Positions 13,114-64,000 of a stretch of DNA of 64,000 bases are shown piece after piece. The position numbers were made by a program, and so were the translations under genes. The stretch's first letter is position 1. Each line of letters begins with the position of its first letter. A model generated the notes under the pieces. That model was not told where the DNA came from and did no database searches. It was given only the letters and a program-made list of their open reading frames with translations. The DNA is from an uncultured Lachnospiraceae bacterium (GTDB lineage: Bacteria; Bacillota; Clostridia; Lachnospirales; Lachnospiraceae). The DNA lies in assembly GCA_946558465.1 (NCBI GenBank), contig CAMNTM010000010.1:1574-65573 (forward strand), given 5' to 3'.

Positions 13114-13164
13114 TTTCTGCTTTTCTCCTGTCCTGTATATTTTATAATCAAGCATTAAATCAAA

Positions 13165-13881: not shown

Positions 13882-14011
13882 CGTTTTATCCTGTTATATT
13901 CTAACACATCTTACTGATAAAACTATGAAAACTTCCTTATAAATTTATGAAGATTTCCACCTGCTGCTTTCACAGATCCATACAGAGACAAGATATATTC
14001 TGGCAGTCTTC

Positions 14012-15469
<1,458 letters not shown>

Positions 15470-19758: not shown

Positions 19759-19820
19759 CGGCTTCCCTCCATTCTTTGAATGTATATTATCATACAATTT
19801 TATAACATTCAATGAATTTC

Positions 19821-38924: not shown

Positions 38925-39332
38925 TTACTCCTTAACTCTAAAAGCAAAATATCTTTGACCAATATAATTAAATCCCACAAACAGTACCATTCCCACAAGC
39001 ATCGCCGCATTCTCCTGCATCCCAACCGACATATCTGTCAGAAGCTTCATTGTCAAGGGCCTGGCAATACCATATGCCAGCAGATAACACAGCAGAATAT
39101 TCAATACGAACTTCAGGACAACTTTTATCGACTTTTCCTTATTCTGAAAGGTAAAATGCTTGTTCAGCACATAGCTTACAATACTGCCGATTATATAATT
39201 CAATGCTGATGATATCCAGTAGCTCAGATGAAGCCCATTATATGCAGTGAACATCACAGCAGTACCCACCGCAGTATTAATAATTCCCACTATCAGGAAC
39301 TTAATCGTAACCCAGTCAACAATCTTTTTCAT
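38925..39332 (-). CDS. GtrA family membrane protein (putative polyprenyl-phosphate-sugar flippase)
   Basis: About 135 aa with four helices. KFLIVGIINTAVGTAVMF and the C-terminal RYFAFR match the GtrA family. It starts 7 nt after the stop of the cohesin-like gene. Confidence 0.85.
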   Translation of the reverse strand: MKKIVDWVTIKFLIVGIINTAVGTAVMFTAYNGLHLSYWISSALNYIIGSIVSYVLNKHFTFQNKEKSIKVVLKFVLNILLCYLLAYGIARPLTMKLLTDMSVGMQENAAMLVGMVLFVGFNYIGQRYFAFRVKE

Positions 39333-39341
39333 CACATACCT

Positions 39342-43433: not shown

Positions 43434-43446
43434 ATTTTCTTCCAAT

Positions 43447-47906: not shown

Positions 47907-47965
47907 ATCCGCTACCTCCATATTTTATATAGCTCATACAAGCTGTCATGTATCTTTTCATTTAC

Positions 47966-48082: not shown

Positions 48083-49453
48083 TCATGGTGAATTTTCCGG
48101 ATTTCCTCCGTCACCGGTATTCTCTCCGGAGCCTGAATCACCGTCTCCAGGTTGATTCGGTTCTACCGGTTCTACCGGTTTTACTGGATCTACCGGTGTC
48201 GGATCTACCGGGTTAACTGGTTCCACTGGATTTATCGGATTCTGATTATTACCTCCACCGCTCTGATTTCCATTATTATCCCAATTGTTCTGATTATAAT
48301 TATAACCAGGAGCATCCTGAGGATCCTCTTCATATGTCTGGCTGTTCAATACCTCATCAGACTCAGCCTGTCTCTGTCCTACTCTGGATATGATTGCACT
48401 GCTGATACTTTGCACCTTTCCTGACGGAGAATAATTGGGGTCGCCAAATAAAAATTCATGCAGCTGCTTTACATTATCCGCTAAGTCCGCCGGAATGACA
48501 ATACTGCCTAAGCCGGAAATCGTATCGGTTGCTTTATCTATAGGAAACCCTGTATTTTCCCCCAACACGTAATCAGCAAAAAAGCTGGCATACGTAATAA
48601 TCTCTGTTGTCGTAAAATTCGTTGATATGGTGGGAAATACCTTATCTATAATGCTGTTAATTGTTCCCAAATCACTCTGTTTAACTTTTTCCACCATCTT
48701 TTCAATCACAAGACGCTGTCTCTCTGTTCTTGTAAAATCTCCGCCTACGGTGGAACGGATTCTGGCATATGTAGTTGCCTGGACCCCATCCATCAGCTGT
48801 ACTCCTGACTCACTTACATGGTGTGCCTCTTTACCCGCAACTGCACCTGTCTCGTCGATAAACTCATTCAGATACTGAACCTCTTCCGGCTTCAAATCAA
48901 TCTCAACTCCGCCCAGTAAATCAACAACCTCAGCTACGACAGAAAAATCTACTGTTACATATTTCTGAATATCTAAATCCAGATTCATATTCAACATATT
49001 AATAGCCTGAGTAGGTCCTCCGAAACTATATGCGGCATTACACTTTTGAAGTGTACCTTCCGACAGGTCGAGCAGCGTATCTCTGTACACAGATACCATT
49101 TTGATCTCTTTCGTCTCATTATTCAAGCTGGCAACAATGATACAATCCGTTCTTGTCCCCTGCTCCAGGTCCCCTTCTCTAGAATCCACGCCAAATAATG
49201 CAACATTCGTAAATCCCTCGCCCAAATCTCCCTTATTTTCCGCTACCTCTTCATTAATAATGATATCCTCCGCCGCGATCTCCTGGGTATCAATTTTTCC
49301 AAGCTTCGCCGCGATAACGACAACTACTCCTGCAAGAGAAGCACACAATATGCCTGCCGTACATACTCCAATCTTTTTTCCAAGACTCAGACGTGAAAAC
49401 CAATTTCCTTTTTTTCGGCTTCTTCTGCCTCTTCTACGCCTTTTTCCAGCCAT
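48083..49453 (-). CDS. LCP family ligase paralogue with a Pro/Val/Asn-rich C-terminal tail
   Basis: ALFGVDSRE, RTDCIIVASL and YARIRSTVGGDFTRTERQR. The tail is NPINPVEPVNPVDPTPVDPVKPVEPVEPNQPGDG, encoded by 12-nt DNA repeats at about 48155-48240. Confidence 0.9.
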   Translation of the reverse strand: MAGKRRRRGRRSRKKGNWFSRLSLGKKIGVCTAGILCASLAGVVVVIAAKLGKIDTQEIAAEDIIINEEVAENKGDLGEGFTNVALFGVDSREGDLEQGTRTDCIIVASLNNETKEIKMVSVYRDTLLDLSEGTLQKCNAAYSFGGPTQAINMLNMNLDLDIQKYVTVDFSVVAEVVDLLGGVEIDLKPEEVQYLNEFIDETGAVAGKEAHHVSESGVQLMDGVQATTYARIRSTVGGDFTRTERQRLVIEKMVEKVKQSDLGTINSIIDKVFPTISTNFTTTEIITYASFFADYVLGENTGFPIDKATDTISGLGSIVIPADLADNVKQLHEFLFGDPNYSPSGKVQSISSAIISRVGQRQAESDEVLNSQTYEEDPQDAPGYNYNQNNWDNNGNQSGGGNNQNPINPVEPVNPVDPTPVDPVKPVEPVEPNQPGDGDSGSGENTGDGGNPENSP

Positions 49454-49535: not shown

Positions 49536-50540
49536 TCAAGTTCTATTTCTTACCCATTCTGCTCTTAAGTGCAGAATGTATGATATTCCGCCTATTCCAA
49601 ACATATTCCACAACTTGTACAAATATGTCTGATATCTTTTTTCAGAATATAATAAGATTTTTCGATAGCGCCTTAACTGCAGCCAGATCTCTTTTCGCCT
49701 GTTTTTATCTAATCTCCAGCTGTCGGCCAAAAGTGCCGCATAGATGCTATTATAATTCCCCATAAATTGTCTTCTCATTTCCTTTGACAGACAATATCTT
49801 CTACAGAATTCTTCTGCATATCTACATACATATAATTTATCCATATAGGTATTCTCATCTACAGAAGCTGTGATAGAACCTTCTCTGTTTTGTCTGTAAA
49901 CATAAAACGGCGTATCAAGATAAGCTGCTCTTTTTGCCTGAAATAACACTTCAGGAGTCCACATGGCATCCTCAAAACAGATACCCTCTTTAAAATATAT
50001 TGCATTCTCTATAATAAAATCTTTTCTTACAATATTCAAACAGGCATACCAGTCATATGTTTTTCCGGACAATAGCTCTCTGAACAGCTTTTCCTTTTCG
50101 ACCCTTTCTACATTCACTTTATCTAAATGATAACTACACTCTTCCTCAATACCGGTTGATGAAAAATAACTGATATACCGGCCAATCAATACATCTGCAC
50201 GCAGACTTGATTTTAATTCATTTATAATATTACAAACGGCATCCGAAGTCAGGAAATCATCTCCGTCTAAAAAAAGAATATATTCGCCCCCCGCCTTTTT
50301 AATGCCCAAATTACGCGTCGCAGATAACCCCTCATTTTCCTTATGGTATACTTTTATGTTATCATACCTTTGGGCATATTCATCACAAATATTTCCGCTT
50401 CCGTCCGTCGAACCGTCATCCAGAAGTAATATCTCCATCTCTTCTGAATTCTGAACAACTACTGAATCCAGACATTTTTTCAAATACAGTTCCAAATTAT
50501 ATACCGGAATGATGATACTTAGCTTCGGCAACTCACTCAC
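49536..50540 (-). CDS. glycosyltransferase family 2
   Basis: LSIIIPVYN, LLLDDGSTD and ILFLDGDD (DxD). The track start at 50540 is GTG, directly after the upstream stop. TTG 50531 follows GGAG at 8 nt and may be the real start. Confidence 0.88.
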   Translation of the reverse strand: MSELPKLSIIIPVYNLELYLKKCLDSVVVQNSEEMEILLLDDGSTDGSGNICDEYAQRYDNIKVYHKENEGLSATRNLGIKKAGGEYILFLDGDDFLTSDAVCNIINELKSSLRADVLIGRYISYFSSTGIEEECSYHLDKVNVERVEKEKLFRELLSGKTYDWYACLNIVRKDFIIENAIYFKEGICFEDAMWTPEVLFQAKRAAYLDTPFYVYRQNREGSITASVDENTYMDKLYVCRYAEEFCRRYCLSKEMRRQFMGNYNSIYAALLADSWRLDKNRRKEIWLQLRRYRKILLYSEKRYQTYLYKLWNMFGIGGISYILHLRAEWVRNRT

Positions 50541-50543
50541 TCC

Positions 50544-51602
50544 CTATTTCAATCGATCAAATACAGTCTTCGTTTTTGTCTGCATCATATAAATCACCTT
50601 ACTAAAACAAAGAAGAACTATCGGCATGTTGCATTTAAAAATCAGATTACATAATTTTTCCTGCCTGGAACTTCCCTTTGCATATTTTTGACATTCTCTT
50701 GAATGCTTTTCCCTCAGCAGACTTCTGGTTCTTCGATATTGTTCAAAAAAACTGTAATTTCCTTCCGGCGAGCAGTTTCTGACAATTCCTGAAACAGCAT
50801 GCTTAATATACATATTCGCAAGCTTTTCTCTTTCAGCCCCGCGATACATATCATTTTTCACCAAGAGTCTTTTTATATACCTGAATCTTTTGTCCATAAT
50901 ATTCAGAAATTCCGGCTGAAACTTTTGTGTAAGCGCCTCTTTAGAGGCTTTTATATAATGATAGCCTGTATGCTCAACAACACATAAGGAAGATATCTTA
51001 TCCCAATACAAGGTATTAAAAATAAAGTCTTCTATAAGCACCTGCTTTGAAAACCACAGCTCTTTTTTTATAATCAGCTCTCTTTTGTACAGCTTATTCC
51101 ACGTATAGGCAAACAGCTTCGCCGTATCGACATCTGCCGCTGTACGGATAATCTCTTTTTTAGCATCCCAGTATTCTTCCGGCATATTGACCGTTCTGCT
51201 GATATATACCTTCTCCCGGTTATCCTCCATTGAATCATGCTGATAGCCGGCTATAATCAAATCCGAATTCTTTCCTCCTGAGTACATGGACTCAAAATAA
51301 TCCCTTTCCACCCAGTCATCCGCGTCTACGAATCCAATATATTCTCCTCTGGCTATTCTCATCCCTGAATTTCTTGCCGCGCTCAGGCCTTCGTTCCTGT
51401 CTTTTTCTATTAAACGGATTCTGGCATCCTGCTGCCGGTAGCTGCGCAGTATCTCTCTTGTAGAATCTGTACTGCCGTCATCTACCGCGATAATCTCTAT
51501 CTGCTTTAATGTCTGTGACAGGATGCTTTCTATACAGTCCCTGATTACCTTTTCGGCATTGTACGCCGGAATTATAATACTAATATATATCTGCTCTTCC
51601 AT
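50544..51602 (-). CDS. glycosyltransferase family 2
   Basis: ISIIIPAYN, IIAVDDGSTD and IGFVDADD. Confidence 0.88.
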   Translation of the reverse strand: MEEQIYISIIIPAYNAEKVIRDCIESILSQTLKQIEIIAVDDGSTDSTREILRSYRQQDARIRLIEKDRNEGLSAARNSGMRIARGEYIGFVDADDWVERDYFESMYSGGKNSDLIIAGYQHDSMEDNREKVYISRTVNMPEEYWDAKKEIIRTAADVDTAKLFAYTWNKLYKRELIIKKELWFSKQVLIEDFIFNTLYWDKISSLCVVEHTGYHYIKASKEALTQKFQPEFLNIMDKRFRYIKRLLVKNDMYRGAEREKLANMYIKHAVSGIVRNCSPEGNYSFFEQYRRTRSLLREKHSRECQKYAKGSSRQEKLCNLIFKCNMPIVLLCFSKVIYMMQTKTKTVFDRLK

Positions 51603-51646: not shown

Positions 51647-52858
51647 TTACGTCAACTCCTCAATCAAATCCACAATTGCATTGTAGGAATTCGGCCTGTC
51701 AAACTGCTTCTTTGCAATCTCTCTGGCCCGCTCTCCCATCTGCCGTCTCTTCTCTTCATCCTTGTACAACTCAATAATCGCGTCTGAGAGAATCTTCTTG
51801 TCTTCCGCCTCTATATTTATTCCGAATCCATCCTGATTCACCTTATTCTTAAATTCAAGACTGCTGCAGGTATTAATCATAGGCTTTCCTGCCGCAAGAT
51901 AATCACCGATTTTTGTCACAATACTCTGAGGCGCCTTTTTCACAAAGGAATTCACTAATATATCCGACTTCTTAAGATAGGCTGCCATTTTCTCATAAGG
52001 AACATAGCCGACAAACTCCACATTACCTTTCAGCTTCTTTGAAAGCTCTTCCAATTCTTCTTTTAACGGCCCGCCCCCCAGTATTTTTATGTGAATATCC
52101 GGATACCCGCCTTTTTTCAGGACATCTGCCGCCAGTATCATCGTTTTAATGTCATAGCTTGTCCCGATTGTGCCGGCATAGGTTACCCAAAACTCTCCCG
52201 GCTTTTTCTCTATCTCTGAGACATACTTCCTGACTCCCTGGTCAAATACCGCCAGCTCATTGCCTACATATACGGTTCTCTTTGGAATATCCCGTTTTTT
52301 CCGCTTGAACGGCCTGTCCCGGTATTCGTCGGAGGTTCCGATTACTCCGGTACACAGGCGGTAGACCTTTTCTGCGTCTCTTAACAGCGGACAGAATAAA
52401 ACATCACTGATTAGCGGAATATCCAGAACCATGTGCATCGCTTCCGGCCATAAATCATTCACATCCACAACAAACGGAATTCCATGCTCCTTTGCATAGC
52501 GTGCTGCTGCTAACGCCACGTCGTTCGGAGGAATCTCACAATATATCAAGTCATAGTGTCCATCTTCCGCCAGCATTTTCTTTAGATTCCGGGCAGCAAC
52601 ACTGTGGCTCCAGATTCTCCTGACCTCGATATTCTTTTTATATCCAGGCTCCGGAATAAATCTTAGATTGAAAGAATACTCGCTCTCCTTAACCTGGGCC
52701 ATATCCCTCTGCGCTTTAGCCCAATGCTGAAAAGAGGTTGTAATCAAATCCACCTTATAGCCCTTCTCAGTCAGGAATTCCGATAAAAAGCGGAATCTTG
52801 TGTATCCGTTTTCATTATTCAATTTCACACCCATTGTGATAATTGCGATTCGTTTCAT
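51647..52858 (-). CDS. glycosyltransferase family 4 (WbuB-like)
   Basis: GT-B architecture at about 400 aa. MKRIAIITMG... with a C-terminal nucleotide-sugar-binding half (VEFVGYVPYEKM...AGKPMINT). Confidence 0.85.
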   Translation of the reverse strand: MKRIAIITMGVKLNNENGYTRFRFLSEFLTEKGYKVDLITTSFQHWAKAQRDMAQVKESEYSFNLRFIPEPGYKKNIEVRRIWSHSVAARNLKKMLAEDGHYDLIYCEIPPNDVALAAARYAKEHGIPFVVDVNDLWPEAMHMVLDIPLISDVLFCPLLRDAEKVYRLCTGVIGTSDEYRDRPFKRKKRDIPKRTVYVGNELAVFDQGVRKYVSEIEKKPGEFWVTYAGTIGTSYDIKTMILAADVLKKGGYPDIHIKILGGGPLKEELEELSKKLKGNVEFVGYVPYEKMAAYLKKSDILVNSFVKKAPQSIVTKIGDYLAAGKPMINTCSSLEFKNKVNQDGFGINIEAEDKKILSDAIIELYKDEEKRRQMGERAREIAKKQFDRPNSYNAIVDLIEELT

Positions 52859-52987: not shown

Positions 52988-53857
52988 TTATTTTCCATTC
53001 ACAAGCTCCATCAGATACTGTCCATAAGCAGTTTTCTGAATAGGAGAAGCCAATTTTTCCAACTGCTCTTTATCTATAAAATTCCTGTTATAAGCAATTT
53101 CCTCAATACATGAAATATATAGTCCCTGACGATTTTGATAGGAGGCCACAAAATCAGCCGCATCAATTAAGGCTTCTGGTGTTCCCGTATCGAGCCATGC
53201 GAAACCACGACCTAACAATTTTACTTTTAACTCTCTTTTTTCAAGATAGACATTATTTATGCTGGTAATTTCCAGTTCTCCCCTGGCAGAAGGCTTTACA
53301 GACTTCGCGATTTCTACCACATGATTATCATAAAAATATAACCCCGGCACAGCATAATTTGATTTTGGATGCTCTGGCTTTTCCTCAATTGATAGCACCT
53401 CATATTCATCTGAAAATTCCACAACTCCGTAATCCTCAGGATTTTTTACATAATACCCGAAGATAAGCGCTCCCTTATCCAAACACGCCGCACGTCTAAG
53501 AATTGTCGAAAAGCTTTGCCCGTAGAAAATATTATCTCCAAGTACAAGAGCCACATTATCACTGCCAATAAATTTTTCTCCTATAATGAACGCCTCCGCT
53601 AATCCTTTGGGCTTTTCCTGAACTTCATAGCTGATAGAAATTCCCAGTTGTGAACCATCTCCCAACAACTCCTGAAAAACAGGAACATCTCTTTTCGTAG
53701 ATATCAGCAAGATTTCCCGAATTCCCGCCAGCATCAATGTAGATAGCGGATAATAAATCATCGGCTTGTCATAAATCGGAAGTATTTGTTTTGACACTGC
53801 ATATGTCATGGGATATAGCCGCGTCCCCGAACCTCCTGCTAAAATAAGTCCCTTCAT
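52988..53857 (-). CDS. rfbA: glucose-1-phosphate thymidylyltransferase
   Basis: [26 protein letters not shown] and the [13 protein letters not shown] region. Confidence 0.96.
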
Positions 53858-53869
53858 CTATTCACCCCA

Positions 53870-54949
53870 TTATCTTATGTGATACATCTCTTTATAATAC
53901 TTCTGATATTCACCGCTAGTAACGTCTTCTACCCATTCCTGATGTTCAAGATACCACTGTACTGTTTTTTTTATTCCTTCCTCAAAACCAGTCTCCGGGT
54001 ACCAGCCTGTTTCGACTTTCATCTTATCTGGTGCGATTGCATATCTTCGGTCATGTCCCTTTCTATCTTCTACATAGGTAATCAAACTTTCACTGATATA
54101 TTTCTTTCTGCTGTCACTATCAGCCAGTAATTCGTTAAGTACCTGAAGAATTGTTTTTACAATCTGTATGTTTGTTCTTTCATTATGCCCGCCTATATTG
54201 TAAGCCTCATAAAGACGTCCTGTTTCCTGAACCATATCTATCGCTTTCACATGGTCCGTAACGTACAGCCAATCCCGTATATTCAGCCCATCTCCATATA
54301 TCGGAATTTTTTCTCCTTTTAACGCGTTATGAATTGTAAGAGGAATTAACTTTTCCGGAAATTGGTAAGGTCCATAATTATTACTGCAATTAGTTATATT
54401 GGCCGGAAACCGGAACGTATCGATATATGATTTCACCAGCAAATCCGATGAAGCCTTACTGGCAGAATAAGGACTGTGAGGGCTGTATGGTGTCGTCTCA
54501 TAGAAGAAACCTTCTTCTTCGAGAGAACCATAGACTTCATCTGTGGAAACATGGAGAAACTTTTTATCTTTCTTAAATGTCCCATCTGAATTCTCCCAAG
54601 CTGCCTTTGCTGCATTCAGCAGCACTGACGTGCCCAAAACATTTGTTCTGACAAAAATCTCTGGATCCTTTATACTTCTATCCACATGACTTTCTGCCGC
54701 AAAATGAACTACCCGGTCAATGTCATAATCGCAAAAAATCTGCTCTACTACACCTCTATCGCAGATGTCTCCTTTTATAAAAATATAATTTTCGCTTTGT
54801 GATATGGTTTCCAAATTTTTGAGATTCCCTGCATAGGTCAATTTATCAAAATTTATAACACGGATTTCTTCCGCATATTTAAGCATAATATACTGTATAT
54901 AATTGGAGCCGATAAAACCTGCTCCTCCTGTAACTAAATAAGTCCGCAT
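53870..54949 (-). CDS. rfbB: dTDP-glucose 4,6-dehydratase
   Basis: LVTGGAGFIGS, STDEVYG and YSASKASSD (YxxxK). The track start at 54982 is TTG and overlaps the upstream gene. ATG 54949 gives the canonical N-terminus MRTYLVTGGAGF. Confidence 0.95.
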   Translation of the reverse strand: MRTYLVTGGAGFIGSNYIQYIMLKYAEEIRVINFDKLTYAGNLKNLETISQSENYIFIKGDICDRGVVEQIFCDYDIDRVVHFAAESHVDRSIKDPEIFVRTNVLGTSVLLNAAKAAWENSDGTFKKDKKFLHVSTDEVYGSLEEEGFFYETTPYSPHSPYSASKASSDLLVKSYIDTFRFPANITNCSNNYGPYQFPEKLIPLTIHNALKGEKIPIYGDGLNIRDWLYVTDHVKAIDMVQETGRLYEAYNIGGHNERTNIQIVKTILQVLNELLADSDSRKKYISESLITYVEDRKGHDRRYAIAPDKMKVETGWYPETGFEEGIKKTVQWYLEHQEWVEDVTSGEYQKYYKEMYHIR

Positions 54950-54972
54950 TTGTTCTTTCATCCTTTTAATCT

Positions 54973-56100
54973 CTATTTCCAAAAGCTCCCGACTGCTTCC
55001 GCCACTTCTTCTACTTTTCTTTCACTTAATTCATAATACATTGGAAGGCGCAGAAGTCTTTCGCTCTCCTTTGTTGTGAACTTATCCTCTCCAAAAAACC
55101 TGCCATATTTTCTTCCAGCCGGGGCAGAATGAAGCGGAACATAATGGAATACTGCCGATATCCCCTTCTCCTTAAGATATTGTATCAGACTAGTTCTCTC
55201 CCCTAAGTCTTTTACTTTTAAATAAAACATATGCCCATTGGGAACACAGCCTTTGGGAACTGTCGGAAGTTCTACATATCCTTTCTCCTTCAAAGGCAGA
55301 AGCAGCTCATAATATAACCGATACAATTTCAGTCTCTTTTCATTAATTATATCTGCTTTTTCAAGCTGCGCATAAAGATATGCTGCATTTAATTCGCTGG
55401 GAAGATAAGAAGAGCCTTTTTCCACCCAGGAATACTTATCTACCATTCCCCGAAAAAATTGACTGCGGTTTGTTCCCTTTTCACGGATAATCTCGGCATT
55501 CGCCACATCCTTCTTGTTATGAATTAAAAGAGCCCCCCCCTCTCCCATACTGTAATTCTTTGTTTCATGGAAACTATAACAGCCAAAATCTCCAATTGTT
55601 CCAAGTGCTTTTCCTTTGTAACTAGACATTACTCCCTGTGCCGCATCCTCAATAACGAGCAGGCCATGCTTCTTTGCAATATCCATAATAAAGTCCATCT
55701 CACAGGCTACGCCTGCATAATGAACAACTACAATCGCTCTTGTCCTTTCAGTAATCGCTTCCTCTATTAATCTTTCATCTATATTCATAGTATCCGGCCG
55801 TATATCTACAAAAACCGGCACCGCACCACGAAGCACAAATGCATCTGCTGTAGACACAAACGTATAGGAGGGCATAATCACTTCCTCACCCGGATATATC
55901 TCACACAAGAGTGCCGCCATCTCTATAGCATGGGTACAGGAGGTCGTAAGAAGTGCTTTCGTTGTGTTCGTTCGATTTTCTATCCATTCATTACACTTCT
56001 TTGTAAACTCTCCATCTCCACAGATTTTTCTTTTTTTAATCGCAGTGCTGATATACTCTTCTTCTTTTCCCACATATGGAGGAACATTAAATGGAATCAT
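54973..56100 (-). CDS. dTDP-4-keto-6-deoxyhexose 4-aminotransferase (WecE/VioA-like, DegT/DnrJ/EryC1 family)
   Basis: The N-terminus MIPFNVPPYVGKEEEYISTAIKKRKICGDGEFTKKCNEW closely parallels my recollection of E. coli WecE. The PLP-lysine region is SFHETKNYSMGEGG. Confidence 0.9.
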   Translation of the reverse strand: MIPFNVPPYVGKEEEYISTAIKKRKICGDGEFTKKCNEWIENRTNTTKALLTTSCTHAIEMAALLCEIYPGEEVIMPSYTFVSTADAFVLRGAVPVFVDIRPDTMNIDERLIEEAITERTRAIVVVHYAGVACEMDFIMDIAKKHGLLVIEDAAQGVMSSYKGKALGTIGDFGCYSFHETKNYSMGEGGALLIHNKKDVANAEIIREKGTNRSQFFRGMVDKYSWVEKGSSYLPSELNAAYLYAQLEKADIINEKRLKLYRLYYELLLPLKEKGYVELPTVPKGCVPNGHMFYLKVKDLGERTSLIQYLKEKGISAVFHYVPLHSAPAGRKYGRFFGEDKFTTKESERLLRLPMYYELSERKVEEVAEAVGSFWK

Positions 56101-56102
56101 AA

Positions 56103-58457
56103 CTATTCTTTTTCCTTCTCTTTTGCCAAATATTGTTCTTTTCTTTCTTCCAAGTACTTAAAAGTAGTTTCCGGAACTAATTTATATATCACACTAAAAT
56201 CTCCTGTTTTTAAAGCCTTACGTACTCTGGAAGCACTAATCACATCACCGCCTGCCTCTTTTCTTGGGATCTCGCTCACCCTTATTCCGTAACGCGGCAA
56301 GATATCTTTCATACTTTCATTATAGCTGCGTGTAACCATGTCAATTGGCTCCTCACCGACAAATCTTCTTGTAATACGAAGAGGAGCCGCGATATATTTT
56401 GCAAAAATATCCACATCCAATGCAGTATCTACCCCTATAGAATCAGGAGAATCCTTAAGGAAATATCCTGGAAATGTCACAGAACTAATAATCAGCTTCC
56501 CACTAGGAATTACAATCACATTTCCAAATTCAGCAGTTCCGGCCCTCACCAGCTGGATACGGTCCTGGAACGGAAAAAACGATTTATCCTCCTCTACGAC
56601 AAAAATATACAGATGATCTACCTGGCCTGCCGCTCTTTCTATGAGATACTTATGTCCTAAAGTAAACGGATTGCAGTTCATAACAATTGCACCGATCACT
56701 CCTTCTTTCCATGAATCCGGAGTCATCTCCTTCACCATGCTGAGATACTCCCGTGCCTGTTCCCTATACATACACTCTTGTTGAACATTTACTGCCTGCT
56801 CCTCTAAATAGAACTCACTGCCCTCCGTATCTGACGTTCTTTTCAAATCAGGCTCCAGTAAAGAAAACAACTTATGCGCAGCCAGTTGATATCCTCTATA
56901 GTTACAATGGACAACACTATTAAAATACACACTCTCATTTATTACCGGATTATTTAACGCAGTGCTGATATCCCATTTTTTGTAATCAGTTCCTATCGGC
57001 ATATACCCTGCATAACTGATCACAACTATATCTCCACTTCTAAATTTTAGATCATAAAGCTGCTTATAAGTCTGATCAATATTTCCCCCCCAGGTTCCCA
57101 TATTCACAACCTTCCAGTTACACTCTGGAATTCTGCTGTTAATCTCTTTTTGAAGAAAACTTGAAATCGTCTGCGAATCCTCAACTGCATATCCAAAAAA
57201 CACACAGCCTCCAAGCATATATATGGTATTTCTGCTATTCTCCGGCTGGTCTACAGTATATCTTTCCCCATTTGTAACATTAATGCAAGCACTTTTTTTA
57301 TTCTCGTGCCGGATTTTCCCTGAGCTTAACTCTATCTTATTTGGAACTGCAAAAATCTGTTCTAAATACTCTTTCGTACACTTTTCTTCATAGATCCCTT
57401 TCAAAAATTCCTTATAGGGTTCCGGATTCTCTTTTATGTTATATAGATTATAATTTTCCCTTTCTTCCAATTCCACAGAGGTCACTTCATGCTTTGGGAA
57501 GAGCGGAACATTCATAGCCCAGTTCCAATTTACAAGATGTAATTCTACTCCCTTCTCTTTTAAAATAGTGTGAAAATAATTACATAGATTTTCCATAATC
57601 CACGTACGGAACAAAACAATAAACCTGCGAACAACAATTCTGTGATTCTGCTTGTTCCTCTGATAAAATTGTTCTGTCCCCAATAGATTCCCATTTTGTA
57701 TAAGCATTACCTTTTCTACATCTGTACAGGAAAGCTTTGCATCAGCGGCATAAATCACTTTTTTTCCTTTATATTTCCTGACAACCTGATCTGCTAAAGG
57801 TGTTCTCTCGGAAAAAAGGATATTCCAGCCTGTATCCAGAAAAATATCACAAAATCTAAAAACAAACGCTTTAAAGCTCTCCGCGTCTTCCACAGCTTCT
57901 TTTATTTCCTCTGGAAAGGCTGCCAGTACTTCTAATTCATATAAAAACTGGCGTATTCCCAATTTATGGAAACCGTTCCTTTCTTCCTCCCACTCCCGTG
58001 TGTCAATATATTCCGTAATATGAAGTGCATTCTCCCCTTCTTCACACTCTGTTTGATCCAATAGATTCAGTTTCCGGATACATTCATTCTCCCCTTCATA
58101 TACAATAGAAGAATATCCGAATAATTTCTTGTATGCCTTAATACTTGCTTCTGTAACCATAGACAGCTGCTTAAACATCCTGCAGTATTCAGTGAGAAGA
58201 ACAATACATTTCAATCCTGCTGTCTTTTCTTCCAGTTCCAATACACGCTCATTTTTATCAATACATAGCAAAATTCCCTTTCCGCCTGACTTACATTTCC
58301 CAATGTCTGTAAAAACAAAATCTCTGGCTTCCTCAAAAATAGACACAAGCGTTTCATCAAGCACCAGCATATACTTATATCCCTGGCTCTGGAACAGCCG
58401 AATCATCTGTTCTTTATTCTTCTCTGTTAATCTGCATATTTCCTTTATATCTGTCAT
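56103..58457 (-). CDS. 784-aa multidomain protein: unknown N-terminal region, SGNH-like domain with Cys at the nucleophile position, and a CitC-type ligase domain
   Basis: GGAGG RBS. The stop lies 2 nt from the wecE-like start. See the domain features and findings for motifs. Confidence 0.8.
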   Translation of the reverse strand: MTDIKEICRLTEKNKEQMIRLFQSQGYKYMLVLDETLVSIFEEARDFVFTDIGKCKSGGKGILLCIDKNERVLELEEKTAGLKCIVLLTEYCRMFKQLSMVTEASIKAYKKLFGYSSIVYEGENECIRKLNLLDQTECEEGENALHITEYIDTREWEEERNGFHKLGIRQFLYELEVLAAFPEEIKEAVEDAESFKAFVFRFCDIFLDTGWNILFSERTPLADQVVRKYKGKKVIYAADAKLSCTDVEKVMLIQNGNLLGTEQFYQRNKQNHRIVVRRFIVLFRTWIMENLCNYFHTILKEKGVELHLVNWNWAMNVPLFPKHEVTSVELEERENYNLYNIKENPEPYKEFLKGIYEEKCTKEYLEQIFAVPNKIELSSGKIRHENKKSACINVTNGERYTVDQPENSRNTIYMLGGCVFFGYAVEDSQTISSFLQKEINSRIPECNWKVVNMGTWGGNIDQTYKQLYDLKFRSGDIVVISYAGYMPIGTDYKKWDISTALNNPVINESVYFNSVVHCNYRGYQLAAHKLFSLLEPDLKRTSDTEGSEFYLEEQAVNVQQECMYREQAREYLSMVKEMTPDSWKEGVIGAIVMNCNPFTLGHKYLIERAAGQVDHLYIFVVEEDKSFFPFQDRIQLVRAGTAEFGNVIVIPSGKLIISSVTFPGYFLKDSPDSIGVDTALDVDIFAKYIAAPLRITRRFVGEEPIDMVTRSYNESMKDILPRYGIRVSEIPRKEAGGDVISASRVRKALKTGDFSVIYKLVPETTFKYLEERKEQYLAKEKEKE
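56148..56705 (-). other. [citrate (pro-3S)-lyase] ligase (CitC)-like adenylating domain (residues about 585-770)
   Basis: IVMNCNPFTLGHKYLIE (the HxGH nucleotidyltransferase motif in the CitC context), SSVTFPGYFLK, RRFVGEEP and VISASRVRKAL. Confidence 0.75.
56853..57236 (-). other. SGNH/GDSL-like domain (residues about 408-535) with divergent catalytic residues
   Basis: The blocks appear in canonical order and spacing. Block I is TIYMLGGCVFFG (GDS replaced by GGC, Cys418). Block II is VVNMGTWGGN. Block III is DIVVISYAGY. Block V is NSVVHCNYRGYQLAA (His516 retained). Recognised by eye only. Confidence 0.5.
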
Positions 58458-58470
58458 CCAAACCTCCTGC

Positions 58471-59409
58471 TTAATCTTCTATATCCTCATTCAGTGATTC
58501 ACGAATCACAAATTGAGGTGATTCATTGATGCACATATATATCCTGCCGATATATTCTCCTATCATTCCCAGTACTAAAAGAATAATACCTCCCAGAATC
58601 AGCATAATGCTCACTGTAGAGCTCCACCCAATCGCAACCGTTGGATGAACAATTTTATTTATAATTGTAAGCAATGCACACAAAAGTCCCACAAACGATG
58701 AAAACACACCAAAAAAGCTGGCAATCCGTAAAGGTTTGATTGAAAATGCAGTAAATCCATTCAGCCAAACTCCTAAAAGCTTTTTAAATGAATAACCGGA
58801 CTGTCCTAACATCCTTTTCCTGTGCTTCACCGGTAAATATCCAATATTTCTCGTTGTCCGATAAACTAGACCTGAAATATACGGATAAGCATGATGATAA
58901 CGAATCATCTCATCAATCACAAATCTTCTCGCCAAAGAAAAGCTGACAACACGCTCTGTGGCAGGTCTGTCAAACATTACCTTTGCCATCCAGCTGTTTA
59001 CCTTTGACCCCAGACGCCGGAATATATTAAACTTTGCCTCTTCACAGGTTCCATAAACCACATCAAAATCCTGCTCTTTCAAAAGCCCCAAAGCAGTCTT
59101 CGTACTGTCAAGAGGACTCTGGCCGTCATCATCTATTGTAATCACATAGTCTCCTGTAACCTTAGAATATCCCGCCATTACAGCTGATGCCTGACCAAAA
59201 TTCTTTGCCAGGCACACACCTTTTATCCGTTTATCTTTACACAGCTCTTTAATTGTATTCCATACATGATCCGGAGAATAATCGTTCACCAATATAATCT
59301 CGTAATCATAATCTTGTAATGACTGCATAATACCCTGAATCTCTGCTACTACTCTTCCAATCGTATTCTCCGACCTATAACACGGAATTACATATGATAT
59401 CTTCTCCAT
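58471..59409 (-). CDS. GtrB/ArnC/CsbB-type polyprenyl-phosphate glycosyltransferase (GT2 with C-terminal TM pair)
   Basis: ISYVIPCYRSE, ILVNDYSPD and ITIDDDGQ (the DxD region). Two C-terminal helices are present (FFGVFSSFVGLLCALLTII and VSIMLILGGIILLVLGMIGEYIGRIY). ATG 59409 follows GGGGAAGAG. Confidence 0.88.
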   Translation of the reverse strand: MEKISYVIPCYRSENTIGRVVAEIQGIMQSLQDYDYEIILVNDYSPDHVWNTIKELCKDKRIKGVCLAKNFGQASAVMAGYSKVTGDYVITIDDDGQSPLDSTKTALGLLKEQDFDVVYGTCEEAKFNIFRRLGSKVNSWMAKVMFDRPATERVVSFSLARRFVIDEMIRYHHAYPYISGLVYRTTRNIGYLPVKHRKRMLGQSGYSFKKLLGVWLNGFTAFSIKPLRIASFFGVFSSFVGLLCALLTIINKIVHPTVAIGWSSTVSIMLILGGIILLVLGMIGEYIGRIYMCINESPQFVIRESLNEDIED

Positions 59410-59410
59410 T

Positions 59411-60160
59411 TTATACACTCTTCCCCAAATCGTCTACTACATCTCTCATCTGATAAAATCCTGTTTTTCCCTTAATAAATTTTGCAGCAAGAAGAGCGCC
59501 TTTTGCAAAAGCCTTTCTTGAAAAGGACTCATGCTCAATGGTAATTCTTTCCTCCTCACTGGCCGCTGTCACCTCATGGACTCCTACATACCCTCCTGCT
59601 CTAACTGAAGATATGGGCGTCTCCCCTCTGTCAATCGCTTTTGAAATCAACTTAGCCGTAGTCGTTACTCTCGGTTTATCTTTACGGTGACGCTCCACAA
59701 TTTCAAAATCAAATTCCGGCAAGATTCTCGATAACTTAGCTACAAATTCCATCAGCAAGTTAATTCCTAATGTCAGATTTGGCGCATACACCAGTCCAAA
59801 TTCTCCTGACCTTCCCAGTTCTTCCAAAAAATCTTGTTCATATCTTGTAAAATTAGTAGTGCAAATCACAAGATTCTTTTTCGACTTATTACAGATTTCT
59901 GCCAGCTTTAAAGACGTTTCCTTTCCTGAAAAATCAATAACCACATCTACTTCTTTTTCCCTCAAAGCCTGTCCGCTTTCTGAAAGTCTGTATAAATATG
60001 TTTCCGTCGGCGCCATTCCAATCAGCTCTCCGATATCCTTTCCAGCTGTCAGACTTGTATCTCTGCAGATTCCCATAACCAGCTGATTTTCCGAATCCAA
60101 AATGATTTTTCTGGCTAATTCCTTTCCTGCACGTCCCATACCACATACTGCAATATTCAT
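59411..60160 (-). CDS. divergent DapB (4-hydroxy-tetrahydrodipicolinate reductase) family oxidoreductase
   Basis: Rossmann N-terminus MNIAVCGMGRAGKEL. VVIDFS, LVICTTNF and VYAPNLTLGINLL parallel DapB. The substrate-loop signature is only partly kept (ERHRKDKPRVTTTA). Confidence 0.8.
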   Translation of the reverse strand: MNIAVCGMGRAGKELARKIILDSENQLVMGICRDTSLTAGKDIGELIGMAPTETYLYRLSESGQALREKEVDVVIDFSGKETSLKLAEICNKSKKNLVICTTNFTRYEQDFLEELGRSGEFGLVYAPNLTLGINLLMEFVAKLSRILPEFDFEIVERHRKDKPRVTTTAKLISKAIDRGETPISSVRAGGYVGVHEVTAASEEERITIEHESFSRKAFAKGALLAAKFIKGKTGFYQMRDVVDDLGKSV

Positions 60161-60164
60161 ATTA

Positions 60165-60914
60165 TTATCTCCTTCTACTTGTATAAATCTCAGGATTCCA
60201 AGAATTGTACATCATATCTGTTAAAGATACAATATCAAATACCGGCAGCTTCGATACTTCCTGTATATCCCTGGAAAATGGCGGCATATTCGTACATTCC
60301 AGAACAACTGCCCCAATGGAGTCATCAGATTCCAACATTTCGCTTGTTGCCTGTCTAAGCTCTCTTCTACATGCTTCTACTTCTACTTCTGTCCAATTCT
60401 GCACTGTAAAATGTGTAAAATTAGGCTTATCTTCAAGTCCTTTAATCACACAATCCGCTTTGTTCACCCCTGCTGCCCTCAAATGACCGTCACTTAAGGT
60501 TCCTTTACTAGCTGTTAGAACACCTACCTTTTTTGTACCGATCATCCGTTTTACCATAGGCACCATCAAAAGCGCTGACGTGAAAACAGGAATACGAACT
60601 GCCTCCGACAATTCCTTCTGGAACAACGCTAAAAAACCACAGGAAGTTGTAATGGCTTTCACTCCTTCACTCTCAAGCTCCTTCGCTGCATCAATAAAAG
60701 GACAGATATCTTCGGCGGTCAATTCCATCACCACCTTCTTGGGCGTCCCTCCCACAACCTTCTTATACAATACCGGATACTTCCATGTCCTTGCATTTCC
60801 CACATCTCCTTCAATCCGGGGAAATATAGAATCCAATATCAGAATACCGATGTCAAAGCCATAGGTGTTAAATCCCCCGTATGCTATTGTCCCCTGTATC
60901 TGTCGGTTATCCAT
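60165..60914 (-). CDS. Asp/Glu/hydantoin racemase-superfamily protein (two-Cys type)
   Basis: About 250 aa with candidate catalytic Cys motifs ITTSCGF and VLECTNMPPF, about 118 aa apart. ATG 60914 overlaps the ATP-grasp stop (TAATG). Confidence 0.7.
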   Translation of the reverse strand: MDNRQIQGTIAYGGFNTYGFDIGILILDSIFPRIEGDVGNARTWKYPVLYKKVVGGTPKKVVMELTAEDICPFIDAAKELESEGVKAITTSCGFLALFQKELSEAVRIPVFTSALLMVPMVKRMIGTKKVGVLTASKGTLSDGHLRAAGVNKADCVIKGLEDKPNFTHFTVQNWTEVEVEACRRELRQATSEMLESDDSIGAVVLECTNMPPFSRDIQEVSKLPVFDIVSLTDMMYNSWNPEIYTSRRR

Positions 60915-62152
60915 TACCAATTGATCCTCCTCACTCCGTCCGTTCCTTTCGTTTCTATTTGTAAAGTCTGCTCCACAAGCTTCAAGCTTTCAAAACATTC
61001 CTTACGGGAATCCCCATATACTAAAATCGGACCATGTTTTCGTGTATCGTCTGTCAGTTCATATACCTCCTGCCCTTCTTTAAGTCCGTCTAAACAAATT
61101 TTATACACTCCCGGTATTTTTTTCACTTCCTCTACACCTGCTATCTTTGTGATAACACCTGGAACTAATTCGAAGCAGCGCCATGCAGACACTTTCTTTT
61201 TCAGCTTAATTCTGTTTAGATGATACTTGGTCCCGTTAAGTACATGCTCAATTAACATCTCGTTTGTGTTAATTCCTGATGCCAAAGGAGTCAGATCAGA
61301 CGACAAATATACGCCGCCTCCTCTTGCTGCTATCTCCACAAGGTACACTCTGTCGTCGTTTTCACAGTAAATGTATTCTCCGTGAGTAATTCCAAATTCC
61401 AGTCCCAAGCCTTCTACCAGCTTCTTGTTAGTTTCCAGAACCTTTTTTTCTTTCTCATCTTTGATTAAATCTGGAGAAGAAAACATACACATTTTAGAAA
61501 TATACATATTAGGTTTATCAAAATACTCCTTGATACCCAAATCCGTATTGATATATTCATAATCAAGAGCCAAACCGTCTACAATGTATTCCTTTCCCTG
61601 TATAAATTCTTCAATAATAGCCTTTTTATTTCCTGAACATTCTATTGCATCTCTTACTGCAATCTCCAGCTCTTTCAGAGCATTTACTTTATGGACACCT
61701 CTGCTTCCACTGCTGTTTGTTGGCTTTACCATAACTGGATACCTCATGTTTGAGACCAAACAAACAGCTTCCTGATAATTCTCCGCCTGTCCGAACTTAG
61801 GAACAGATATCCCCGCCTTCTCTGCCTCTGTACGCATGAGATACTTGTCCGAAAATTTCATAGCTGTATGGTACCCAATTCCTTTTAATCCCAGCTTTTC
61901 CGAAACATAGGCCACCGTCGGAACAGAAACATCCGTCTGATCTGTCAATACGGCATCTACCTGCTCTTTTTCTGCAATTTTCAAAATGCCTTCTTTGTCA
62001 CGAATATCACAATAATAACATCTATCAGCCACTCGAAAACCTGGATAATCTCCTTTGATGCTGACAGCTATTACCTCAGCACCTTTTTCTTTACAAATAC
62101 CCATAAATGGAATCTGTCCATTGTTAGCGCCCAATATCATTACTTTCTTCAT
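60914..62152 (-). CDS. ATP-grasp carboxylate-amine ligase (L-amino-acid-ligase-like)
   Basis: A pre-ATP-grasp Rossmann region MKKVMILGANNGQ. Also DKYLMRTEAEKAGISVPKF, YPVMVKPTNSSGSRGV, IIEEFIQGKEY and YLVEIAARGGG. Confidence 0.85.
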   Translation of the reverse strand: MKKVMILGANNGQIPFMGICKEKGAEVIAVSIKGDYPGFRVADRCYYCDIRDKEGILKIAEKEQVDAVLTDQTDVSVPTVAYVSEKLGLKGIGYHTAMKFSDKYLMRTEAEKAGISVPKFGQAENYQEAVCLVSNMRYPVMVKPTNSSGSRGVHKVNALKELEIAVRDAIECSGNKKAIIEEFIQGKEYIVDGLALDYEYINTDLGIKEYFDKPNMYISKMCMFSSPDLIKDEKEKKVLETNKKLVEGLGLEFGITHGEYIYCENDDRVYLVEIAARGGGVYLSSDLTPLASGINTNEMLIEHVLNGTKYHLNRIKLKKKVSAWRCFELVPGVITKIAGVEEVKKIPGVYKICLDGLKEGQEVYELTDDTRKHGPILVYGDSRKECFESLKLVEQTLQIETKGTDGVRRINW

Positions 62153-62211
62153 GAATTATTTCCCTTCTGAAACATTTTTACTGTATATTTGAACTTCCTG
62201 CATTTATCATG

Positions 62212-63438
62212 CTAAAGCCAATCTGGGCCATTGAGCAAATGAATATAGTAATAAACCCCAGATATAAAATGGGCGGCCAGCAATATATCTCCAATTTTAA
62301 ATATCCGCTCTAGCCTCCCCCCTGAAATTTTTGAACTGGATTTTTTCTTTTGGAAATATTTTATAACAGCAATCACCCATAAAAAATAAACGGACAGTTG
62401 CTTCGCCCATGAAAAATTACCGGCACTATTATCCAAAGCTTCTGCCATACACGCAGACTCACAGAATGATACTACCGAAAATAAAATAATCATCTGTAAA
62501 TACTTATCTGTAAATATCTCTTTACGTGCAATAGTCAAAATACAAAATACTGGAAACGCATAGAGTAAAACAGAAGAAACTACTATATTAGGAGCACTGT
62601 TTCCTACAAAACCAAAGAAGGTAAATCTAATCCCGCCTCTGCTATATTCGCTTCCATCACCATAGTAAAACAAAACCTGGTATAAAAGATACAGGCAGCT
62701 TGGTAAAAAGGCCAAACCCGACTGCATGCAAAAAGGAAAAATTTTCCCTCTCGAATTTATCAGCTCAATCAATAAAAATACGCCTACTGCTGGAAGAAAT
62801 CCCTGTAGAAATGACGGCTTAGCCAATACCGTATAAAATAAAAGCAAAGAAAGTATTCCTATTTTCTTCCATGAAAACAACTTTACTTTGCCTTCATCTC
62901 TTAAAATTTCCTTGTATTCATAATAATATTTTACATATAAAAAAATTGCTAACAATGCTCCCGCCTTTACTACTGCCTGAGTAGGACTGTGCCAAATATT
63001 GGGAGAACTCACCCCTCTGTAAACCTCTTTGCTATACCATGGATAATAAATCGCTGTTACATATGTCAAAACAAAAGTAAGCGCACAAATCTCATATTCA
63101 CTACATACTCCTTTTAGAAAACACGTCAATATCATATAAGTAACAATAACTGTCAATACTACAAAAACAGTAACTACAAAAACGCCAGAATCATATATAG
63201 AAATATGAAAAATTCTGCTAAAAAACGCTGTCAATATATGATATACCGGATAAGTAAACCTTCTAAGAAAAGGAAATGGATTTGTAAACTCCAACAACGC
63301 TGCATTATCTGAATGTTTAATTAAATCTGAGCCTCCACCCCTTTCCATAATAGAATTCGTCAATATGAAGGTTCCGTAAAATATAACAACACACACAAAG
63401 CCTATCGGCCATATCCAATTTTTCTTTTGTCCTCTCAT
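62212..63438 (-). CDS. polytopic membrane protein (at least 10 helices); candidate GT-C-type transferase or polymerase
   Basis: 408 aa and almost entirely hydrophobic helices, with a first loop ERGGGSDLIKHSDNAALLEFTNPFPFLRR. I recognise no motif with confidence. The start overlaps the upstream stop (TAATG). Confidence 0.7.
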   Translation of the reverse strand: MRGQKKNWIWPIGFVCVVIFYGTFILTNSIMERGGGSDLIKHSDNAALLEFTNPFPFLRRFTYPVYHILTAFFSRIFHISIYDSGVFVVTVFVVLTVIVTYMILTCFLKGVCSEYEICALTFVLTYVTAIYYPWYSKEVYRGVSSPNIWHSPTQAVVKAGALLAIFLYVKYYYEYKEILRDEGKVKLFSWKKIGILSLLLFYTVLAKPSFLQGFLPAVGVFLLIELINSRGKIFPFCMQSGLAFLPSCLYLLYQVLFYYGDGSEYSRGGIRFTFFGFVGNSAPNIVVSSVLLYAFPVFCILTIARKEIFTDKYLQMIILFSVVSFCESACMAEALDNSAGNFSWAKQLSVYFLWVIAVIKYFQKKKSSSKISGGRLERIFKIGDILLAAHFISGVYYYIHLLNGPDWL

Positions 63439-64000
63439 TATTCAGACCTCCAAAGCAAACTATAAAGCAAAGTAATGCCTTTTTCTAAAACAACAGAAAG
63501 CATCCAGGAAATTACACATGTCCATATTAACGTACTTACAAATGTAATGATTAGAGCACCGGTAAACGATATATATTCGAGCAGTTTTTGCATTATATAA
63601 TATCCCCATACGTATATCACTATAACATGTGACACATAAATATAAAATGATATTACCCCCCCCCTTGCCAGAAAAGGACAACTTAGCGCTTTTTTTGCAC
63701 GCTCACATTGAAACAAAAAAAGAAGAGCAACAAAGCATAAGATGCCCTGTCCAATAAATAAAACCTCATTTTCCCCCATATGAAGGGACATAACCTTATA
63801 TACGGTGAATAATCCCATAAAAACGAGGCCTATAATTTCCTTTTTCAACTTAAAAGTATGATTCAGATAATAAACAACTCCTCCCATACACCCAATCCCA
63901 ACCCAGGTCCATCCACAGGCAAGAGCACCCACAATTACACATAACAATACTATCAAACTTATTTTCTTTACTCTAAAAGCCGAAAATAAAACAGCAATAA
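63438..64000 (-). CDS. acyltransferase-3 (OatA/WecH-like) family membrane protein, C-terminal part (5' end beyond the window)
   Basis: The reading frame stays open to the window edge. The track TTG at 63956 is not a real start, since upstream in-frame codons read ...IAVLFSAFRVKKIS. Multi-helix sequence with VISFYIYVSHVIVIY, resembling the conserved C-terminal motif of acyltransferase_3. Confidence 0.55.
   Translation of the reverse strand, partial: IAVLFSAFRVKKISLIVLLCVIVGALACGWTWVGIGCMGGVVYYLNHTFKLKKEIIGLVFMGLFTVYKVMSLHMGENEVLFIGQGILCFVALLFLFQCERAKKALSCPFLARGGVISFYIYVSHVIVIYVWGYYIMQKLLEYISFTGALIITFVSTLIWTCVISWMLSVVLEKGITLLYSLLWRSE

Follow-up and report, generated by a model that had tools for sequence, protein, structure and literature searches.

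PseH normally acetylates the C4 amine of UDP-4-amino-4,6-dideoxy-AltNAc, and WecD does likewise for dTDP-Fuc4N. In the Arn pathway (ArnB, ArnA, ArnC, ArnD, ArnE/F and ArnT), 4-amino-4-deoxy-L-arabinose is placed onto lipid A. Multi-component transmembrane glycosylation uses a membrane-linked GT-A glycosyltransferase (GT) that makes a C55-P-sugar, a flippase of the GtrA or Wzx type and a multi-spanning GT-C (PMC8035078). The known Gram-positive systems of this kind transfer only galactose (Gal), glucose (Glc) or N-acetylglucosamine (GlcNAc), directly from common UDP-sugars (PMC8035078). In another system, one operon encodes the ATP-grasp enzyme AslA and the racemase RacD, through which D-Asp is joined to an amine on a nucleotide-linked precursor (PMC4155827). 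Here we analyzed ten genes at positions 52988–64000 of a 64,000-nt stretch of DNA from an uncultured Lachnospiraceae bacterium (contig CAMNTM010000010.1). We call the whole stretch the window, and all its positions are window positions. We put at roughly 60% the probability that this region is an arm of a wall-polysaccharide locus which would encode a transmembrane glycosylation pathway of the multi-component kind, with an N-acylated 4-amino-4,6-dideoxyhexose as its sugar.

Ten co-directional genes and a proposed acylation trio

The ten genes are co-directional and all lie on the minus strand, as read from the open reading frame (ORF) listing and a junction script. With ATG starts, the gaps in coordinate order are 12, 23, 2, 13, 1 and 4 nt, a TAATG overlap, 59 nt and another TAATG overlap. 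A purine-rich stretch was found 5′ of the start codon in each gene. The initial annotation had given the same ten genes and spacings, which we reproduced exactly, but its gene order had to be reversed because the strand is minus. Transcription starts with an acyltransferase-3 (AT3) gene and proceeds through the genes for a 408-aa membrane protein, an ATP-grasp protein, a racemase-like protein, a DapB-like protein, a family 2 GT (GT2), a CitC-like fusion, WecE, RfbB and RfbA. Since all ten genes are on the minus strand, the sugar-nucleotide genes are transcribed last, with rfbA final.

Synthesis of a 4-amino sugar by RfbA, RfbB and WecE had been claimed at the outset, and all three proteins exceeded curated equivalog cut-offs. 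RfbA (52988..53857, 289 aa), a glucose-1-phosphate thymidylyltransferase, scored 480 bits with the rmlA model TIGR01207 (cut-off 361). RfbB (53870..54949, 359 aa from the ATG at 54949), a dTDP-glucose 4,6-dehydratase, scored 473 bits with TIGR01181 (cut-off 365). The WecE-type dTDP-4-keto-6-deoxyglucose 4-aminotransferase (54973..56100, 375 aa) scored 632 bits with NF008687 (cut-off 375) and 630 bits with TIGR02379 (cut-off 435). The product of these enzymes is probably dTDP-4-amino-4,6-dideoxyhexose in its galacto form, Fuc4N.

No acetyltransferase of the GNAT or hexapeptide type was found by Pfam and NCBIfam among the annotated genes of the window (27.5–64 kb), and none was found in the syntenic flank of locus L008, which belongs to the closest species representative, Lachnospiraceae bacterium 50-23. 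Neither rfbC nor rfbD was found in the annotated part of the window. The absence of all three, as first claimed, was thus upheld for 27.5–64 kb. Seven of nine Pfam-annotated related loci likewise have no acetyltransferase.

Between the membrane-protein gene and the GT2 gene lie three genes for proteins with no membrane helices, which we call the trio. The first (60914..62152) encodes an ATP-grasp carboxylate-amine ligase of the L-amino-acid-ligase (LAL) type (412 aa), the proposed N-acylating enzyme. It matched ATP-grasp_4, Dala_Dala_lig_C and LAL_C2 in Pfam, and among solved structures it is nearest to 4dim (deposited as phosphoribosylglycinamide synthetase) and to two L-amino-acid ligases, BL00235 and BacD. 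In related loci this gene always adjoins the racemase-like gene.

The second protein of the trio (60165..60914, 249 aa from the ATG at 60914) belongs to the Asp/Glu racemase superfamily (PF01177). It scored 279 bits with NF005679, the uncharacterized PRK07475 subfamily (cut-off 231). Across 29 homologues, its C92 and C207 never vary, and they align with the two cysteines of 2eq5, a hydantoin-racemase-like chain, so that both cysteines of a two-cysteine racemase, in the TSCG-like and ECTN-like motifs, are present. The third protein (59411..60160, 249 aa) is a paralogue of the DapB-family NAD(P)H reductases and scored 156 bits with TIGR00036 (cut-off 122).

The strongest evidence for the role of the trio comes from a second setting. 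In the Dorea-like loci L094 and L095 (~3660–14200), the trio lies inside a pseudaminic acid (Pse) cluster, and its proteins are 55, 56 and 47% identical to those of the window. The order is PseB, PseC, a 360-aa protein, PseF, PseG(-like), the trio, one or two methyltransferases and PseI, and neither PseH nor GT2 is present in this cluster. Both settings have a nucleoside diphosphate (NDP)-4-amino-4,6-dideoxyhexose as substrate, a missing N-acetyltransferase and the trio. Because the WecD-less and the PseH-less clusters both carry it, the trio would supply and attach a non-acetyl acyl group. The trio is portable and most likely replaces the usual N-acetyltransferase on an NDP-4-amino-4,6-dideoxyhexose. 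The unusual, non-acetyl N-acyl group proposed in the initial annotation gains support from both the absence of an acetyltransferase and the trio in the PseH-less cluster, which predicts a Pse with an unusual N7-acyl group. One member of the L094/L095 cluster is annotated as Dorea sp.

A precedent for an ATP-grasp enzyme and a racemase acylating a nucleotide-linked amine is provided by AslA/RacD. As candidates for the acyl group in the window we considered D-Asp or D-Glu, a tetrahydrodipicolinate-like cyclic imino diacid and an opine-type N-carboxyalkyl group. In the related locus L088, an aspartokinase-like gene (19292–20530; AA_kinase plus ACT, 412 aa) directly follows the aminotransferase (DegT) gene and may hint at an acyl precursor of the aspartate family.

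We also considered that the trio consists of housekeeping genes for lysine synthesis, D-Glu or D-Asp supply and a Ddl-like ligase which stand in a polysaccharide operon by chance. The DapB-like protein does pass the TIGR00036 cut-off, and the genome beyond the window, with any second dapB there, was outside our view. However, the substrate loop of DapB is swapped for a subfamily-specific motif. The DapB-like loop reads ERHRKDK-PRVTTTA, compared with EAHHRHKVDAPSGTA in E. coli DapB. Compared with the reference loop E-x-H-H-x-x-K-x-D-A-P-S-G-T-A, the module orthologues retain the first catalytic His as well as the C-terminal Ser-Arg. In 11 of 11 module orthologues, other residues stand at the second His, and K-x-x-(V/I/P)-T-(T/K)-T takes the place of the DAPSG loop. 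On these alignments, the DapB-like proteins of the module are a subfamily of their own that shares the changed loop. MurI and the aspartate racemases are only distantly related to the racemase-like protein (E 0.0037 or weaker against aspartate/glutamate racemase chains in the PDB), the trio keeps its order across 43–75% identity and moves between two sugar pathways, and stop–start overlaps link the genes with those beside them. We therefore regard a chance placement of housekeeping genes as extremely improbable.

Homologues of the racemase-like protein were also found on metagenome contigs (L101–L177, 45–52% identity), where the other module genes, including those for the ATP-grasp and DapB-like proteins, are not present. 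Their neighbors are FAD-dependent oxidoreductases (14 loci), amino-acid ABC/TRAP transporters and enolase-superfamily genes. These neighbors fit amino-acid racemization, and the settings look catabolic.

The genes for the aminotransferase (DegT), ATP-grasp, racemase-like and DapB-like proteins and GT2 were found together in 11 of the 12 non-redundant WecE-type aminotransferase loci that we tabulated. In the tblastn tables, locus L012 lacks a GT2, and L009, which is on a short contig, is cut off ahead of the ATP-grasp and racemase-like genes. Core identities to the window proteins are 43–81%; a block that recurs at these identities in many gut Bacillota, with variable order outside the trio, indicates an arrangement beyond chance. 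Neighborhoods of fusion homologues (41–60% identity) all contained the ATP-grasp, racemase-like, DapB-like, GT2 and WecE-like aminotransferase genes. The order is DegT, trio, GT2 in L092 and the same followed by two EamA genes in L096, both with no fusion. L090 has DegT, trio, GT2, fusion, Wzx-like, AT3 and GtrA, and L088 has YfhO, a 393-aa protein, trio, GT2, fusion, AT3, Bac_transf, DegT and the aspartokinase-like gene. From these loci, the conserved core is the aminotransferase, the trio and GT2, with the fusion and AT3 as frequent accessories. A search with the racemase-like protein gave 3477 matches, with single close homologues indexed in more than 200 assembly-collection blocks. The module is thus far commoner than the fusion search implied and is common, not rare, in gut metagenomes. 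Named carriers include Coprobacillus cateniformis and Dorea sp.

A proposed lipid-carrier route and wall-polymer locus

The GT2 protein (58471..59409, 312 aa from the ATG at 59409; PF00535) is a putative polyprenyl-phosphate GT of the ArnC/GtrB/PgfS type. Its best NCBIfam matches were ArnC (156 bits, 1.2e-45) and PgfS (150 bits, 1.1e-43), both below the cut-offs. Two C-terminal hydrophobic helices (aa 232–250 and 266–284) give it what appears to be the architecture of a membrane-linked GT-A in the scheme of PMC8035078.

The 408-aa polytopic membrane protein (62212..63438) had no Pfam match. Its AlphaFold2 (AF2) model, built with 25 homologues, has a pLDDT of 87.6 and a pTM of 0.90. In a Foldseek search of the PDB with this model, STT3, PglB, AglB, AftA and ALG9 came first (best E 7.5e-4, query TM-score ~0.54). 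D38 is invariant and H42 nearly invariant in the 25 homologues, both just past the first helix. Multiple membrane spans with an acidic motif in an extracellular loop mark a GT-C (PMC8035078), and the predicted fold and the position of D38 fit this definition. We propose the protein as the extracytoplasmic transferase. The protein was also considered as a Wzy-type polymerase, and this was rejected because the fold search favors GT-C. In L008, the GT-C homologue is found as two consecutive ORFs of 279 and 121 aa (3886–5111) and the WecE homologue likewise as ORFs of 225 and 157 aa (12349–13475); these splits may be frameshifts, pseudogenes or assembly errors.

Two flippase candidates lie in the locus, 14–19 kb from GT2. 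These are a small GtrA-family membrane protein (38925..39335, minus strand, 136 aa; PF04138, E 3.2e-24) and a Wzx-like protein of 507 aa (43447–44970). Beside the core in relatives we found YfhO in L088, GtrA in L090 and a small EamA pair in L003 and L096; in L003 the pair follows the DapB-like gene. YfhO, GtrA and EamA proteins are the partners expected for a lipid-carrier route. Together with the GT2 architecture, the GT-C model and GtrA in the window, they agree with the undecaprenyl-phosphate route claimed in the initial annotation. The wall-polymer target claimed there is likewise favored by two LCP ligase genes and several GT genes in the locus.

Downstream of rfbA, and also on the minus strand, are genes for a GT4 (51647–52858), two GT2 (50544–51602 and 49536–50540) and an LCP ligase (48083–49453), identified by Pfam and separated by gaps of 129, 44, 3 and 82 nt. 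The transcription unit probably continues 3′ through all four. The first strong minus-strand terminator-like hairpin is at 48058–48020, with 17 pairs and then a T run. Promoter-like and terminator-like matches within the gene block showed no excess over shuffled sequence. L008 has the same GT4-GT2-GT2 and LCP genes after rfbA, and L001 has an LCP gene alone.

An alternative is that the GT4 and GT2 enzymes incorporate the acylated 4-amino sugar into the repeat unit while this is made in the cytoplasm, and that the GtrB-like GT2 and the GT-C form a separate decoration system for Glc, Gal or GlcNAc. Three soluble GTs do follow rfbA, all characterized Gram-positive systems of this kind add one of these three sugars (PMC8035078), and the donor of the GT2 is not predictable, its ArnC and PgfS matches being sub-cut-off. 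Still, the cassette encloses the GT2 gene, which is 1 nt from the DapB-like gene on one side and 13 nt from the fusion on the other. GT2 also adjoins or is near the trio in nearly all WecE-type aminotransferase loci, and it is absent from precisely the setting in which a CMP-nonulosonate is the form of the sugar that is delivered. Moreover, ArnC, its best family match, handles a 4-acylamido sugar. Compared with delivery of the acylated sugar by this GT2, a separate decoration system seems unlikely to us.

Further along, the locus contains GlmS (46080–47921, Pfam), the UDP-galactopyranose mutase Glf (42327–43445), which implies galactofuranose, and the second LCP ligase (41060–42265). It reaches ~38.9 kb and also holds another GT4 and a 534-aa protein by GtrA. 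The latter was tried as a second GT-C candidate and rejected, having two hydrophobic segments only. It has no Pfam match, and a 40%-identical relative follows the LCP gene in L001. The GC content is ~0.41 over the whole window, and GC skew is strongly negative throughout (−0.08 to −0.34). The minus strand carries nearly all long ORFs of the window, a pattern that a Bacillota chromosome with leading-strand bias would show when read in reverse.

The CitC-like fusion and AT3

The fusion (56103..58457) is a 784-aa cytoplasmic protein of three parts with no membrane helices. It consists of an N-terminal domain (~nt 57423–58457), an SGNH-like domain (~nt 56883–57275) and a CitC-type domain (nt 56151–56696). 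The CitC-type domain matched PF08218 (Citrate_ly_lig) with 230 bits over aa 588–769, and its HxGH and ISxxR motifs are invariant. It fell below the CitC equivalog TIGR00124 (218 bits, cut-off 262), in which profile positions 122–331 alone were matched, and no citrate lyase (cit) genes were found in the window. The AF2 model of the fusion, built with 28 full-length homologues, has a pLDDT of 86.8. Foldseek on the whole model gave matches to the C-terminal domain only, and these were PPAT-type nucleotidyltransferases.

A profile of the middle domain matched the GDSL/SGNH esterases 9otv (E 6.5e-5) and 1yzf. The alignment places GxC/S over the GDS nucleophile, VvNxG over block II and H517 over the His of block V, and Cys418 takes the nucleophile position. 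In 100 members of the fusion family, R399, G416, Q436, D476 and H517 are invariant, N452 is 98% conserved and the nucleophile position is Cys or Ser. The middle domain therefore appears to carry the block I nucleophile, the block II/III Gly and Asn and the block V His of the SGNH/GDSL enzymes. No match was found for the N-terminal 345 residues, either in Pfam or with a profile against the PDB.

Relatives sharing the SGNH-like and CitC-like domains were found in at least 587 species of many phyla by a species-genome scan (L015–L087). These wider family members are ~660 aa long, with differing N-termini, and are found in varied polysaccharide loci, often near genes for pyruvyl transferases, DegT or NeuB. 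They occur in Selenomonadaceae, Treponema, Bacteroidales and Propionibacteriaceae, among others. In L059 the family protein is fused to a 4Fe-4S protein (978 aa), and stand-alone 4Fe-4S homologues neighbor the family in eight loci. Within the close clade, L011 (10001–12316) has a long-form homologue, 37–78% identical by domain, with no trio, GT2 or WecE within 10 kb; it is the sole such exception. We suggest that the fusion may be an ATP-dependent acyltransferase in which the CitC-type domain makes an acyl-AMP, the Cys/Ser carries the acyl group and the variable N-terminus picks the acceptor.

The initial annotation had placed the fusion in the pathway itself. The trio occurs with no fusion in three module variants, L092, L094 and L096, and a core role was rejected; we treat the fusion as an accessory instead. 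The same loci bear on another explanation, that the fusion is an ATP/acetate-dependent acetyl ligase which replaces WecD to give Fuc4NAc, while the trio makes something else, such as a D-amino-acid-containing wall component. CitC chemistry activates acetate as acetyl-AMP, and the fusion has the strong CitC match with both motifs invariant (HxGH and ISxxR, 230 bits), an SGNH-like domain with a Cys/Ser nucleophile joined to it and no competing acetyltransferase. However, L092, L096 and L094 keep the aminotransferase and the trio with neither a fusion nor an acetyltransferase gene beside them. The wider fusion family is found in many unrelated polysaccharide loci with no WecE, and the trio is tied to amino-sugar pathways in two distinct contexts. 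Plain acetylation by the fusion is thus improbable, and we retain the trio as the proposed source of the acyl group.

The AT3 gene (63438..64000) is represented in the window by its C-terminal part of 186 residues (PF01757, E 4.8e-6), and its 5′ end is past the window edge. A look-up of the window's fusion protein on public contigs gave no match, and gene content beyond 64000 was inferred from L008, where the AT3 homologue is full length (347 aa, PF01757 1.2e-19). A functional link between the fusion and AT3 was considered and rejected. The two co-occur in seven of eight module loci, but AT3 was found within 7 kb in only 2 of 73 wider-family loci, and shared ancestry can explain their co-occurrence.

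Proposed pathway and comparison with known systems

In the proposed pathway, RfbA, RfbB and WecE, as assigned by homology, would make dTDP-4-amino-4,6-dideoxyhexose. The trio would then provide a non-acetyl acyl group and attach it at the C4 amine in place of an acetyl-CoA transferase. For this, the LAL-type ATP-grasp ligase would activate a carboxylate as an acyl phosphate, and the two-cysteine racemase-like enzyme would most likely yield a D-configured or epimerized acidic amino acid. The DapB-like reductase would form or tailor the acid in a DapB-type, NAD(P)H-dependent reaction on a cyclic imine. The ArnC/GtrB-like GT2 would move the acylated sugar onto undecaprenyl phosphate, a GtrA-type flippase would carry the lipid-linked sugar outward, and the 408-aa GT-C protein would transfer it to a polymer made by the neighboring GT4 and GT2 enzymes, which the LCP ligases would anchor to the wall. 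AT3 and the cytoplasmic CitC-SGNH fusion would be accessory tailoring enzymes. The fusion probably makes an acyl-AMP of a small acid and passes the acyl group through Cys418 to the sugar or its aminoacyl substituent.

Several points weigh against this pathway. WecE homology does not separate a galacto from a gluco product, and a hexapeptide acyltransferase gene is near the module in two related loci, L005 and L096 (in L096, ~5 kb upstream of the aminotransferase, among GT genes). The DapB-like enzyme has no assigned substrate, which leaves the three-enzyme logic incomplete. The GT-C assignment is based on a predicted model whose Foldseek E-values are modest (best 7.5e-4), and sequence does not show which donor the GT2 uses or which acceptor the GT-C serves. 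GtrA is ~19 kb from GT2 and could serve another system.

A broader proposal can be made only tentatively, and we consider it, taken as a whole, possible rather than probable. The trio would be an undescribed portable cassette that builds a non-proteinogenic acid (D-configured or cyclic imino dicarboxylic, of the aspartate family) and ligates it to the C4 amine of NDP-4-amino-4,6-dideoxyhexoses. This would place new N-acyl Fuc4N or Qui4N sugars and N7-acyl pseudaminic acids on abundant gut Clostridia. Jointly, the CitC-SGNH proteins would be new CoA-independent, ATP-driven glycan acyltransferases that work via a Cys/Ser acyl-enzyme.

In gut Lachnospiraceae, Oscillospiraceae and Erysipelotrichaceae, the surface glycans influence how phages adsorb and how the immune system recognizes the cells, but most of these glycans have yet to be charted. 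The module suggests a new N-acyl group on an amino sugar, and a lipid-carrier decoration system that would be the first among Gram-positive bacteria to deliver an N-acylated amino sugar. The trio cassette is a testable explanation for clusters that seem to have no WecD or PseH. If the proposed chemistry is true, the CitC-SGNH family, which spans at least 587 species, would constitute a new enzyme class in glycan acylation. Our literature search found no description of this gene combination; the initial annotation likewise named no described system with it.

Compared with the CsbB/GtcA/YfhO, GtlA/GtcA/GtlB and CsdAB/CflA systems, the locus shares a GT-A-type GT2 with C-terminal helices, GtrA in the locus, a (predicted) GT-C protein and an LCP context. 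In contrast to the CsbB/GtcA/YfhO type, its GT2 sits in a dedicated dTDP-4-amino-4,6-dideoxyhexose pathway with its own acylation enzymes, and its GT-C protein is small (408 aa) and in no Pfam family.

Like the Arn pathway, the locus has a DegT-type 4-aminotransferase, N-acylation of the amine, an ArnC-type GT2 acting onto undecaprenyl phosphate and a GT-C transferase, the latter three as proposed here. ArnC is also the best NCBIfam match of the GT2, and the EamA pairs of L003 and L096 resemble the small flippase pair of Arn. It differs in that a dTDP-6-deoxyhexose is used rather than a UDP-pentose, that acylation would be by an ATP-grasp ligase, and that the target would be a Gram-positive wall polymer rather than lipid A. 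Neither the ArnA formyltransferase/decarboxylase nor the ArnD deformylase was found in Pfam and NCBIfam scans of the locus, so the locus is not Arn.

The pathways to dTDP-Fuc4NAc of enterobacterial common antigen (ECA; RmlA, RmlB, WecE, WecD) and to dTDP-Qui4NAc (VioA, VioB) share RfbA, RfbB and the WecE equivalog with the locus. Here, an acetyl-CoA N-acetyltransferase of the WecD/VioB type would be replaced by the trio cassette, and because no such acetyltransferase was found at 27.5–64 kb, the locus is not the ECA/WecD pathway.

As in AslA/RacD of lactococci and enterococci, an ATP-grasp ligase gene is beside a gene for an Asp/Glu-superfamily racemase (PMC4155827). There, the acceptor is the Lys of UDP-MurNAc-pentapeptide and no DapB-like partner occurs, whereas here the racemase-like protein is of the PRK07475 subfamily and the ligase is of the LAL type.

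The C-terminal adenylating domain of the fusion is clearly homologous to CitC [citrate (pro-3S)-lyase] ligase in score and motifs. However, the GNAT-like N-terminal part of CitC is replaced by an unmatched domain and an SGNH-like domain, and the context is polysaccharide synthesis with no citrate lyase genes nearby. The fusion is not CitC. Relative to all these systems, the novelty lies in the trio cassette and in the CitC-SGNH family.

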